Part shown: piece after piece, positions 11,671 through 41,597 of the stretch
Position numbering within the stretch: position 1 is the first letter of the stretch
How the letters are laid out: each line of letters starts with the position of its first letter
Assembly (NCBI GenBank): GCA_963836235.1
Contig: CAWIIP010000002.1
Span: forward strand, 1,440,001 to 1,504,000
DNA: 64,000 nt
Direction of reading: 5' to 3'
DNA from: an uncultured Pseudomonadota bacterium
Lineage (GTDB): Bacteria > Oederibacteriota > Muellerivitia > Muellerivitales > Muellerivitaceae
Notes under the pieces: generated by a model
The model's database searches: none
Seen by the model: only the letters and a program-made list of their open reading frames with translations
What the model was told of the DNA's origin: nothing
Translations under genes and position numbers: made by a program

Positions 11671-11772
11671 GGCCCACTCCCCGAGGCCGAAGGCTCAAAC
11701 GGGGGAGCGGCAGAGGGACTTCCGATGGAAGGACTCTCCGCTTCTTATTCCCGAAGAAGCATTCGAAGATTT

Positions 11773-11911
11773 CTCAAGGCCGGTCTCCTGACTTGGGGCT
11801 TTCTGCTCCTTGAGCCTTCCCGTTCTTTCAAACAGTGGCACAAGAAAAAATTTCGCCCCTTACAGTGGCGGGTCCGCGCCGGATTCACACCGGCTTCCCG
11901 AACACCTTGAG
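11773..11911 (-). promoter_or_regulatory. Cobalamin riboswitch
   Basis: Minus strand: GGGAAGCCGGTGTGAATCCGGCGCGGACCCGCCACTGT...GCCACTG...GGGAAGG...AAGTCAGGAGACCGGCC (B12 box), closed by P1 CTCAAGG/CCTTGAG; upstream of btuB. Confidence 0.95.
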
Positions 11912-11960
11912 TTGTAGGTTGGTGATACTCCTGCTCACCAAACTTGTCAACGGTGAAGTT

Positions 11961-36121: not shown

Positions 36122-36169
36122 AAAAGTCGGTGGATTCTTTGTTAGGACCAACGAAGCGTTCTGTAAAGT

Positions 36170-36197
36170 TGTCCACGACGGGGACCCTTCGTGGACA
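36170..36197 (+). repeat. 28-bp cassette site 1
   Basis: TGTCCACGACGGG-GA-CCCTTCGTGGACA. Confidence 0.9.
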
Positions 36198-36536: not shown

Positions 36537-36543
36537 TGGGCGT

Positions 36544-36562
36544 TGTCCACGATGGGGACCCA
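36544..36562 (+). repeat. 28-bp cassette site 2, left part (interrupted by the intron; remainder at 38493-38501)
   Basis: TGTCCACGATGGG-GA-CCCA | intron | TCGTGGACA rejoins to a perfect 13-bp inverted repeat. Confidence 0.9.
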
Positions 36563-38492
36563 GCGCGCCAAGAAAGCTGTTGTTCATCCAGTCGGCTGAA
36601 ATGTGCCGACCCAGACAAAATTTGGCAGTCTGGTAGCAGGGAGCCGAATCGGGCAGGGTAACCTGCCAGGTTCAAGCGGCTCGACAAAGGGCGGCAAAGC
36701 GCCCGATGCGAAAGGACGGGTCGTAACACGTGTGAACCTAGGTGTAACCTCGTAACGTCGAGATTGAGGAGGGTGACCCTTTTGGGTCTTGGGGAAACCA
36801 GTATTCCATGCGGGAGCCAGAAATACGCATGGGACTGCTTCGGGGTAACAGGGGCGACACGTCCAGACGGAGAACAACGGAACTTGGGAGACCCATAGGG
36901 AAGCACAAGGTACCTGCCTATAAGTCTAAGCGGCGAAATGGCAGGGAGAGCCTATGGGAGTCAGACAAGCCTACAGTAGCTATGAGGGCTAGGACTAAAC
37001 CTAGTCAGAGCAAAGGGGCTTGACCTGGGTAGAGCTTGGCCAGGAGAGAGGGACAAGGGATTGGCGATGAGCCTAGTAACCCTACAAAAAGTTCAGGATC
37101 TTCAGCACAAGCTAGCTGGGAGGAGTAAGTCAAAGCCGAAAGAACGTTTCTACAGTCTCTACGACAAGGTGTGCCGGAAAGAGGTTCTGTGGGAAGCATG
37201 GCAGAAGGTGAAGGGCAATGGAGGTTCCGGAGGAGTGGACGGGGTAACGGTGGAAGGTATAAAGGCCACCGGAGAGAAGGAATACCTGCGGGCACTCTGG
37301 ACGGAGCTGAAGGAAAAGGAATATAAGCCATTGCCGCTCAGGCGGGTTTGGATACTAAAGGCCAACGGGAAGAAAAGGCCCTTGGGGATACCGACGGTGA
37401 AAGACCGGATTGTACAGCAAGCGGTACGATTCGTTATGGAGCCGATCTTCGAGGCGCACTTCTCGGAAGTGTCCTTTGGATTCAGGCCAGGCCGGGACTG
37501 CCATCAGGCCATCACCAGAGTGGTGACATACCTAAATTGGGGTATGGTGAACGTGGTTGAGACGGACATTGTGGACTGCTTCGGAAGTATCCCACATGGA
37601 AGGCTGTTGAAAGCGGTGGCTCGCAGGATAGCCGACAAAGGTATCCTGAGGGTGATCCGGCAATGGCTGAAATGCGGGGTGATGGAAGAAGGGCAGTTCC
37701 AAGAAACGACCACGGGAACGCCTCAAGGAGGGGTGATTTCGCCGCTTCTGGCGAATATTTACCTGGATGCGCTGGATCAACTTTGGAAGAAGCGGAAGAT
37801 GGATTCCAAAAGCGGATACAACGCCCAAATGGTCAGATACGCCGATGACATGGTAATTCTCACGGATCGGAGCCCCCGGGAGGCGGAAAGGCTGCTGAGG
37901 GAAACCTTGGGCAGACTGGATTTGAAGCCTCACCCGGAAAAGACGCGGGTGGTGAACGCAAAGGCAGGGGATTTTAACTTTCTGGGGTTCAATTTCCGAC
38001 AGCGGAAGAATCCCCGAACAGGGAGAAGCCAATGCCTGTTTCAACCCTCGCAGAAGGCCCAAAAGAATGTGCGGGAGAAAATCAGACTGGCTACAGCAAG
38101 CCCGGAGTTAAATGAACTGGGTAAGGTGGTCAGAGAGAAAGTTAATCCCATTCTGAGAGGGTGGGTGAATTACTTTCGGATCGGAAACTCCAGCAAAACT
38201 TTTAATAATCTCCGGAACTTTGCAAAGAAGAGAGTCCTGCGATTTATTCGCAGGAGGAAGAAACAAAGCGGGCCAGGTTGGGACAGGATCAGCGAGGATT
38301 TCCTTTATGGGAAGCTGGGCCTGTTTAAGGAATACCGGGTGAAACGGTTTTCTCAACCCGCTGTGGCTTAGACGAAGGGCCTCCGGTGAATACCCTTGGA
38401 AAGCCGTATGCGGGAAAACCGCACGTACGGTTTGATGAGGAGGCGTTGGAAACGTGCCGGTTATCCGGTGACGCGCCAGTGCTTTACTCTAT
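36563..38492 (+). mobile_element. Group II intron (IIB-like, full-length domain V)
   Basis: 5' GCGCG, domain V AGCCGTATGCGGGAAAACCGCACGTACGGTT at ~38402, domain VI ending ACTCTAT; removal restores the flanking repeat exactly. Confidence 0.92.
37067..38371 (+). CDS. ltrA: Group II intron reverse transcriptase/maturase without endonuclease domain
   Basis: RPLGIPTVKDRIVQ, GFRPGR, GTPQGGVISPLLANIYL, RYADD, FLGF, X domain NPILRGWVNYF. Confidence 0.95.
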   Translation: MSLVTLQKVQDLQHKLAGRSKSKPKERFYSLYDKVCRKEVLWEAWQKVKGNGGSGGVDGVTVEGIKATGEKEYLRALWTELKEKEYKPLPLRRVWILKANGKKRPLGIPTVKDRIVQQAVRFVMEPIFEAHFSEVSFGFRPGRDCHQAITRVVTYLNWGMVNVVETDIVDCFGSIPHGRLLKAVARRIADKGILRVIRQWLKCGVMEEGQFQETTTGTPQGGVISPLLANIYLDALDQLWKKRKMDSKSGYNAQMVRYADDMVILTDRSPREAERLLRETLGRLDLKPHPEKTRVVNAKAGDFNFLGFNFRQRKNPRTGRSQCLFQPSQKAQKNVREKIRLATASPELNELGKVVREKVNPILRGWVNYFRIGNSSKTFNNLRNFAKKRVLRFIRRRKKQSGPGWDRISEDFLYGKLGLFKEYRVKRFSQPAVA

Positions 38493-38501
38493 TCGTGGAC
38501 A
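38493..38501 (+). repeat. 28-bp cassette site 2, right part (3' exon)
   Basis: TCGTGGACA directly after the intron 3' end. Confidence 0.85.
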
Positions 38502-39148: not shown

Positions 39149-39155
39149 GCAATAT

Positions 39156-39183
39156 TGTCCACGGCGGGGACCCATCGTGGACA
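39156..39183 (+). repeat. 28-bp cassette site 3
   Basis: TGTCCACGGCGGG-GA-CCCATCGTGGACA. Confidence 0.9.
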
Positions 39184-39975: not shown

Positions 39976-39983
39976 AAAATGCT

Positions 39984-40011
39984 TGTCCACGATGGGGACC
40001 CGTCGTGGACA
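39984..40011 (+). repeat. 28-bp cassette site 4
   Basis: TGTCCACGATGGG-GA-CCCGTCGTGGACA. Confidence 0.9.
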
Positions 40012-40571: not shown

Positions 40572-40656
40572 ATTTCTTCATGCGCTCCTTTATGGTCGAA
40601 TTACCTGGGATTTGTTGGTTCGTAAATCGGAATGGGGTCTTTGGTCATTTAGAGCT

Positions 40657-40684
40657 TGTCCACGACGGGGACCCACATTGGACA
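40657..40684 (+). repeat. 28-bp cassette site 5
   Basis: TGTCCACGACGGG-GA-CCCACATTGGACA. Confidence 0.85.
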
Positions 40685-41562: not shown

Positions 41563-41569
41563 AAAATCC

Positions 41570-41597
41570 TGTCTAAGACGGGAACCGCATTGAATGG
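41570..41597 (+). repeat. Degenerate right boundary site (left arm conserved)
   Basis: TGTCTAAGACGGG-AA-CCGCATTGAATGG; left arm 11/13 identical; 7 nt after the GNAT stop. Confidence 0.6.

Follow-up and report, generated by a model that had tools for sequence, protein, structure and literature searches.

The 64,000-nucleotide (nt) window analyzed here (G000:C2:1440001-1504000) includes an array of small gene cassettes separated by copies of a 28-nt palindromic repeat, and the second of these copies (site 2) is interrupted by a group II intron. The features of the array, including the exon-binding sites (EBS) of the intron and the intron-binding sites (IBS) in its exons, are as follows.

36169-36197, plus strand: repeat site 1, GACCCT variant, empty, downstream of an EamA-like open reading frame (ORF).
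36543-36562, plus strand: 5′ exon TTGTCCACGATGGGGACCCA, the left arm and center of the repeat, ending in IBS1 GACCCA (36557-36562); the same junction is found in a second intron copy on contig C1.
36563-38492, plus strand: full-length group II intron, 5′-GCGCG...CUAU-3′, 1930 nt (Rfam RF02005 and RF00029; boundaries set by restoration of the repeat).
36756-36760, plus strand: weak EBS2 candidate CGUCG in an internal loop, which could pair with exon CGAYG at −13 to −9 and is unpaired in the consensus fold.
36783-36788, plus strand: EBS1 UGGGUC in a 10-11 nt terminal loop closed by CCCU/GGGG (Rfam alignment, consensus fold, covariation).
36848, plus strand: candidate EBS3, the bracketed A of GGGGUA[A]CAGGGG in an internal coordination-type loop, which would pair with +1 T38493.
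37067-38371 (open frame from 37061), plus strand: intron-encoded protein, 434 amino acids from the ATG, with reverse transcriptase (RT) and maturase domains (Pfam).
38401-38492, plus strand: domains V and VI (RF00029 alignment), with the AGC triad at 38402-38404.
38486, plus strand: candidate branch-point A, placed by the RF00029 alignment only.
38493-38501, plus strand: 3′ exon TCGTGGACA, the right arm of the repeat, with T38493 as IBS3; the same in the C1 copy.
39155-39183, plus strand: repeat site 3, GGGGACCCA (39166-39174) followed by T, empty, fitting both EBS1 and EBS3.
39983-40011, plus strand: repeat site 4, GACCCG variant, empty, 8 nt past the stop codon of VapC (PIN).
40656-40684, plus strand: repeat site 5, GACCCA followed by C (GGGGACCCA at 40667-40675), right arm diverged, empty; its +1 C does not fit an EBS3 that is A.

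The ribozyme was recognized by two Rfam models, one covering domain I (RF02005, group-II-D1D4-6; 36600-36855; 60.4 bits, cut-off 49) and the other domains V and VI (RF00029; 38399-38492; 51.5 bits, cut-off 40). The ORF, located in domain IV, encodes an RT domain (RVT_1, residues 98-312, 1.5e-36) with an intact YADD motif (37838-37849) and a maturase domain (GIIM, residues 335-404, 5.2e-13). No D/En (endonuclease) family was found in the protein with Pfam, and since the maturase domain is followed by only about 30 residues, there is no DNA-binding/endonuclease part. Ribozyme domains I and V/VI, an RT-maturase ORF in domain IV, and pairing between EBS1 and IBS1, three characteristics of a mobile group II intron, are found in this element. 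Its 3′ end (AU/AC) fits the boundary consensus AY. Excision of the intron rejoins TTGTCCACGATGGGGACCCA and TCGTGGACA and yields the repeat as it is found at 36169, 39155, 39983, and 40656; a search of the window with a 26-mer returned four matches, compared to none in 100 shuffled sequences. An earlier note on this DNA, made from the sequence alone, had placed the intron within site 2 and stated that its removal restores the repeat, and this proved right, as did every coordinate it gave. Its readings of the 5′ end as GCGCG and of the protein as one without an endonuclease agree with the sequence and with the Pfam results, and the two sites that it described as sharing GACCCA while being empty, sites 3 and 5, are so.

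The proposal that TGGGTC at 36783-36788 is EBS1 was confirmed by three types of evidence. The Rfam alignment placed UUUUGGGUCUU in the terminal loop of a domain I hairpin, and a consensus fold of the window intron and its two closest genomic relatives (three sequences; in 31 of the 117 pairs both bases have changed and pairing is retained) produced the same CCCU/GGGG stem and the same loop. In addition, the loop covaries with the end of the 5′ exon, with a matching pair in each of the four introns of the alignment (A4).

Window intron (G000): loop core UGGGUC; 5′ exon end GACCCA.
G051 (sister genus; two ORF-less derivatives of 711 nt that do not differ from each other and share 97% identity with the window intron in the first 396 nt): CGGGUC; exon GACCCG.
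G021 (locus L007; RT 66% identical): AUUUGAG; exon CUCAAAU.
G049 (locus L122; ORF-less, 80% identical): AGUGAAU; exon AUUCACU.

The G000 and G051 introns differ by a one-base compensatory change and occupy the two commonest variants of the repeat. The EBS1 pairing consists of 6 base pairs (bp), with two possible G-U extensions onto GG at −7/−8. Recognition of the 3′ exon is of the IIB type, through an EBS3 and not through a delta base beside EBS1. The base located 5′ of EBS1 is a U opposite the +1 U, and a delta pair is therefore impossible, while the position equivalent to 36848 is A in the introns with a +1 T (G000 and G051) and U in those with a +1 A (L007 and L122), an agreement in four of four introns over two states. 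In this comparison, A36848 behaves as a candidate EBS3 for the +1 T. The idea that the fold of domain I would account for EBS1, EBS2, and EBS3 was thus borne out for EBS1 and, at the level of a candidate, for EBS3, but EBS2 was not established. The loops of L007 and L122 equivalent to CGUCG have at most 4 nt of complementarity to their exons, which leaves this EBS2 candidate unsupported there, and another one, GUCGU at 36721-36725, was discarded because relatives with different exons conserve it as well.

The intron is present a second time in the genome (G000:C1:223050-224979), with two differences in 1930 nt and at the identical position in another copy of the repeat. The left arm is CGAC there and CGAT in the window, the sequences beyond the right arm differ, and the outer flanks are unrelated, with an identity of 0.30 over the 40 nt that precede the repeat; what is common to both copies starts at the first base of the intron and stops at the last one. 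GACCCAT occurs 436 times in the genome, 22 of them within GGGGACCCAT; the 7-mer by itself therefore does not account for both copies being located in the repeat. Contigs assembled from public sequencing runs added three cases of a left arm continuing into the intron. One of them (X2, 2187 nt, from another study) is about 96.6% identical and retains the +1 T in its 3′ exon and not the right arm; the others are a 237-nt contig from a third study and a 146-nt contig from the best-matching public run, the outer flank of which is absent from G000. Contigs from an RNA library (X11) included parts of a relative with 90-96% identity, although DNA carry-over is possible. Taken together, these sequences indicate that the insertion is a homing event rather than a coincidence.

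We consider it very probable that the element is an active or recently active group II intron retroelement that has no endonuclease (En-less) and retrohomes by RNA-DNA pairing into a family-specific palindrome of about 28 nt that separates cassettes. The evidence of mobility is indirect and consists of the two nearly identical copies in G000 and the two identical ORF-less copies in G051. Several observations weigh against this interpretation. The 5′ end is GCGCG (GAGCG in relatives) and not the consensus GUGYG, a deviation limited to position 2 in a lineage that keeps GNGCG. EBS2 could not be established when the loops of the window, L007, and L122 introns were compared with their exons, and 6 + 1 base pairs are insufficient for an exclusive use of the repeat; the extra specificity could come from an undetected EBS2, from protein contacts with the left arm, or from the accessibility of the palindrome. 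Among the CGAYGGGGACCCAT sites, seven are empty and two occupied. The candidate EBS3 explains why site 5, where GACCCA is followed by C, is empty, but not why site 3 is, as this site fits both EBS1 and EBS3. Homing must then be inefficient, recent, or in need of something further. The C1 copy lies on a weakly C-rich strand, a misfit with a strict preference for the lagging-strand template. Neither a spliced nor an empty-site form was seen in the public runs, where the reads yielded no joints from which either form could be told. Finally, no group II RT of any kind was found in G051 with the window RT as the query (the genome is 96% complete).

The repeat is a palindrome with two arms of 11 nt and a center of 6 nt (28 nt, 11-6-11: TGTCCACGACG GGGACC CGTCGTGGACA). 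G000 has 78 copies with up to two mismatches, distributed over 22 loci of which 10 have 3-14 sites, always with a uniform orientation within an array, and only two of these copies contain the window intron. The sites in the window are located 7-85 nt after a small ORF or ORF pair. The cassette ORFs are EamA-like, DUF1272, one without a family, VapB-VapC (PIN), and a membrane protein, followed by a GNAT/antitoxin pair; 5 nt past the GNAT toxin gene a sixth, degenerate copy was recognized by eye (CCTGTCTAAGACGGGAACCGCATTGAATGG, approximately 41568-41597, plus strand). The intron lies between cassettes, 7 nt past a stop codon and in the sense orientation. In four pairs of sites in G000, only one of the two flanks is homologous and the homology breaks off at GGGGACCC or immediately behind it, and one cassette of approximately 660 nt is present in two arrays. 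The one-sided homology ending at GGGGACCC identifies the repeat as a recombination breakpoint that bounds mobile cassettes.

Of the 30 other genomes in the family (f1), 27 carry the repeat, frequently with dozens of copies each. It was found in 0 of 67 genomes from families f3-f23, and the only genome from f2 gave one match with three mismatches, so that the repeat is essentially absent from the rest of the phylum. The site is thus widespread, as the earlier note expected, but within one family only. That note also expected the site to be exposed as single-stranded DNA, which is suggested by one observation, the location of GGGGACCC on the locally G-rich strand in 72 of 74 sites at 18 loci (the count left out four single, chance-like matches with two mismatches, C2:320134, C4:485753, C4:782189, and C5:325292). 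This bias fits the lagging-strand template and could equally reflect the co-orientation of genes with replication. When folded as single-stranded DNA, intact sites had predicted energies of −6 to −14 kcal/mol.

These arrays do not form an integron: no integron integrase is present in G000 (best TIGR02249 score 40.9 bits, cut-off 265), and integron attC sites, which usually have a length of 57-141 nt, are far longer than the present site. The borders of the arrays lack a recurring gene and contain none of the eight tyrosine recombinase genes. Open frames of 369-374 amino acids are found for six tyrosine recombinases of G000 (C2:509098, C1:328990, C5:272844, C4:245282, C2:1374385, and C2:1186149), one of them 2.3 kb from a third intron described below and another at 5.5 kb from the largest of the repeat arrays; these recombinases of similar size are candidates for acting on the 28-mer. 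Two other functions were considered for the repeat and rejected. An intrinsic terminator is not supported, as only one of the four intact sites in the window has a T-rich tail, and neither is a repetitive extragenic palindrome (REP) associated with a REP-associated tyrosine transposase (RAYT), as none of the three Y1 transposase genes adjoins a repeat. A second repeat of approximately 21 nt (TTCGACAAGCTCATGGCAGGC and variants) follows GGGGACCCA exactly at the intron insertion point in three copies of the 28-mer, at positions that include C2:427138-427158 (minus strand), C2:1231168-1231210 (plus strand), and C2:1943048-1943100 (plus strand). In one such copy the right arm resumes after about 24 nt. 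The unit has further copies outside these sites, some of them arranged in inverted pairs, and may represent a different small element that uses this spot. Elsewhere in the window there is a cobalamin riboswitch (11761-11924, minus strand; RF00174, 106.8 bits).

The earlier note contained neither the ORF-less derivatives of the window lineage nor the presence of two more intron lineages of the family that target the same repeat, lineage 3 after CCACGAYG and lineage 2 after GTGGACA. Lineage 3, with an RT 40-41% identical to that of the window and a 5′ GUGCG, divides the repeat into TTGTCCACGAYG and GGGACCCATCGTGGACAA (L014, from the same genus, and L015), and its 8-nt EBS1, CGUCGUGG, complements the last eight exon bases, CCACGACG. 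Its junction was found 17 times in 6 of the 31 family genomes, 12 of these in G067. Lineage 2, found in sister genera, has an RT 44-47% identical to the window RT and is inserted directly after the whole palindrome (...TCGTGGACA/UCGUGCC... in L010 and L011); the 8-nt EBS1 of L010, UGUCCACG, complements CGTGGACA, and the junction was found 47 times in 10 of the 31 genomes. Both lineages thus use 8-nt EBS1 pairings, in contrast to the short IBS1 of IIC introns. The best EBS1 match of L011 ends three bases before the apparent junction, and the 5′ splice site of this subgroup is unsure. Lineage 2 introns start with UCGUG or GCGUG, and not with GUGYG (L010 and L011; junctions in G066 and G054); their 5′ splice site may be located upstream of the GUGYG-like motif, by analogy with C.te.I1, for which such an arrangement was reported (PMC4424553). 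The third intron of G000, at about 504.7-506.8 kb of C2, belongs to the lineage 2 clade and is found 13 nt after an unrelated long hairpin, and L017, a relative of lineage 3, is inserted between a stem and its T-run. Judging from these locations, lineages 2 and 3 have IIC-like habits; the window intron uses the center of the repeat. The junctions indicate that, within this family, group II introns of different lineages use the repeat as a common target.

The relationships of the window RT were analyzed in a tree of 66 rows (IQ-TREE short search, supported by the Shimodaira–Hasegawa-like approximate likelihood ratio test, SH-aLRT, only), in which no class C, D, or E reference is certified. The window RT belongs to a clade of 16 rows that also contains metagenome proteins as well as the introns of G021 and G027, and this clade, with lineage 3 and three metagenome loci, forms a clade of 26 rows (SH-aLRT 98). 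The lineage 3 clade includes introns from Bradyrhizobium and from a B. thuringiensis plasmid, while lineage 2 is found elsewhere in the tree with introns from Leptospira, an E. coli plasmid, and a Rhodococcus jostii plasmid. The presumed anchors of class G (g1) of Toro and Martinez-Abarca are outside the 26-row clade; they are the R. jostii plasmid and Candidatus Paracaedimonas introns, taken as Rh.js.I1 and Ca.ac.I1 by the names of the organisms only (PMC3552965). The neighbors of the window RT in the tree include introns that insert directly after hairpins. Compared with RTs of solved structure, the window RT scored 191.8 bits with GsI-IIC, 188.2 with E.r. IIC, and 184.1 with T.el4h IIB. Lineage 2 (234.7 and 226 bits for IIC, 185.8 for IIB) and lineage 3 (187.6 and 170 bits for IIC, 128.3 for IIB) prefer IIC. 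The Rfam D1-D4 types do not separate these groups, as the window intron and L007 are best matched by D1D4-6 and the close relative L006 and the g1 anchors by D1D4-4. The AGC triad of a full-length domain V had been taken to show that the intron is not a IIC intron. The triad is present, but the test is invalid: AGC is common to all these groups, the IIC-like lineages included, and does not exclude IIC.

The 434-amino-acid protein has 8000 homologues with a top identity of 98%, the five closest ones (P0001-P0005) being 74-98% identical. The nearest plasmid RTs are 41-45% identical; a scan of genome contigs with the single protein gave one relative, of 30% identity, among the matches listed, and an alignment-based scan of metagenome contigs gave at most 48% identity among the 80 loci listed. 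In G051, the ORF-less copies (L121) are located in two copies of the repeat, at C4:35261-35971 and C4:39169-39879 (minus strand). The distant relatives in G021 and G049 have unrelated flanks, non-palindromic 5′ exons, and a different EBS1, as expected from ordinary base-pair retargeting onto a repeated site. Unrelated flanks of related introns had been named in advance as an argument against programmed homing; such flanks do exist in G021 and G049, but the loops differ correspondingly, which supports programmability instead. The 5′ exon of the G021 intron (L007, G021:C17), ...GGTGCTGCTCAAAT, resembles bases 14-26 of the intron, GCTGCTGCTCAA, and this intron may be located in the remnant of a related one.

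In the mechanism that we propose, EBS1 (36783-36788) pairs with GACCCA and the candidate EBS3 (A36848) with the +1 T, as the comparison of related introns shows, and the intron RNA would reverse splice into the strand carrying GACCCA followed by T. Because the protein has no endonuclease, the priming of complementary DNA (cDNA) would depend on replication, with the nascent strand at the replication fork probably acting as the primer. Replication-dependent cDNA priming is described for En-less introns such as RmInt1 (PMC4424553, PMC5894124). From its sense position between cassettes, the intron is expected to be transcribed with them and then spliced, which would restore the hairpin in the RNA. 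Changes in EBS1 would permit retargeting, as the G000 and G051 variants for the two variants of the repeat suggest and, for unrelated sites, the distant relatives do.

Retrohoming led by base pairing has to be weighed against a mainly structural, IIC-like targeting, in which the ribonucleoprotein would recognize the DNA hairpin or the single-stranded palindrome and EBS1 would only fix the exact phosphodiester. Such a mode of recognition would provide the specificity that is required beyond 6 + 1 bp, and it is consistent with the predicted folding of intact sites as single-stranded DNA, with the 72 of 74 sites on the G-rich strand (the lagging-strand template if the G-rich strand is the leading one), with the location of lineage 2 and of the third G000 intron directly after a hairpin, and with the same behavior among the RT-tree neighbors. 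However, the window intron is inserted inside the 3′ arm, where the stem hides part of its IBS1 (GA of the loop together with CCCA), and EBS1 could pair only after the hairpin has opened. In X2 the left arm is present and the +1 T is followed by no right arm, which indicates that insertion does not require a complete hairpin; the compensatory exchange of a single nucleotide in G051 indicates that pairing matters; and the G021 and G049 relatives reside next to 5′ exons that are not palindromic. We regard a mainly structural targeting as improbable.

The two copies in G000 could also have been produced by DNA duplication or by site-specific recombination of a cassette carrying the intron, without independent retrohoming. 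Transfer of cassettes from one array to another, with breaks inside the repeat, does take place, as the four one-sided site pairs and the approximately 660-nt cassette demonstrate, but the homology between the two copies is bounded exactly by the ends of the intron, the upstream sequences, the arms (CGAT and CGAC), and the downstream sequences differ, and the G051 copies and the metagenome contigs are further independent contexts; this origin is very unlikely. Even harder to sustain is the view that the half-repeats at both sides, which are indeed inverted repeats flanking the intron, are part of the mobile unit, such as the terminal inverted repeats of a composite element. Two of 78 copies of the repeat contain the intron, the repeat is found in 27 of the 30 other family genomes and the window RT lineage in none of these, and the intron's 5′ end lines up with those of relatives in other flanks. 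A broader reading, which we put forward tentatively and hold to be possible rather than probable, is that the palindrome is the core site of a non-integron cassette-shuffling system restricted to one family and, at the same time, a safe harbor entered independently by at least three intron lineages, with EBS1 sequences for the left arm, the center, or the right arm, and with ORF-less derivatives moved in trans. As the insertion point is within a base or two of the cassette breakpoints (after GGGGACCC), the introns may block recombination at the site and thereby fuse cassettes.

Three habits of targeting are described for bacterial group II introns, namely insertion at long homing sites, downstream of terminators, or in attC sites (PMC4424553). 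A search of the available literature, judged mostly from listings, gave no report of this repeat or of several lineages using one non-attC palindrome. From the sequences, what appears to be new is a palindromic target outside integrons, its use by three lineages at three positions, the base-for-base tuning of EBS1 including the A/G variants of the site, and the ORF-less derivatives. The system offers a clean natural case of EBS1/EBS3 retargeting onto a repeated harmless site, and with it the attC story reaches past integrons and past the class C-attC introns. It also yields natural ribozymes of small size, about 711 nt, that carry no ORF, and an RT without an endonuclease whose 7-nt target is defined and which could be tried as a targeting tool. 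The repeat is a sequence whose interruption is tolerated by the cells of this family, which bears on its function.

The closest parallel in known cassette arrays is that of the IIC-attC introns, which form a sublineage of class C and have the attC sites of integrons as insertion targets (PMC4424553, PMC7923331). As here, an En-less lineage is specialized on a repeated site that bounds cassettes, with several copies per genome and in arrays rich in toxin-antitoxin genes. The present site, in contrast, is a near-perfect palindrome of 28-30 nt, there is no integron integrase, and insertion takes place inside the palindrome by means of a 6-bp EBS1. IIC-attC introns are oriented opposite to the cassette genes (PMC7923331), while the window intron and its flanking ORFs are all on the plus strand, and the window RT is no closer to the solved IIC RTs than to the IIB RT. 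The separation from IIC-attC introns made in the earlier note therefore holds with respect to integrase and orientation. Halophile arrays of integrons or clusters of attC sites lacking integron integrases (CALIN) contain the IIB introns UHB.I2 (CL1) and H.ha.F1/F2 (class E) described by Sonbol and Siam in 2021 (PMC7923331). These introns are non-IIC and resemble the window intron in being oriented with the cassettes, without an endonuclease, and in toxin-antitoxin-rich arrays, one of them without a nearby integrase. They are single or truncated and located after attC, with no EBS match or conserved flanking exons shown, whereas here the same position is reused, EBS1 and EBS3 covary, and three lineages are involved. 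Class C (IIC) introns insert after intrinsic terminators (PMC4424553), a location resembling those of the third G000 intron, lineage 2, and L017, and differing from that of the window intron, which is within the stem and led by sequence. RmInt1 and RmInt2 (class D) home into ISRm2011-2 and into the inverted repeats of ISRm17 (PMC5894124). They are En-less, have a target that is itself repeated, spread to many of its copies, need replication for priming, and leave some sites empty (PMC5894124), features seen or, for priming, expected in the window intron too; the differences are that the target here is a short intergenic palindrome and not an insertion sequence, that no EBS2 was shown for it, and that the RT belongs to a different lineage.

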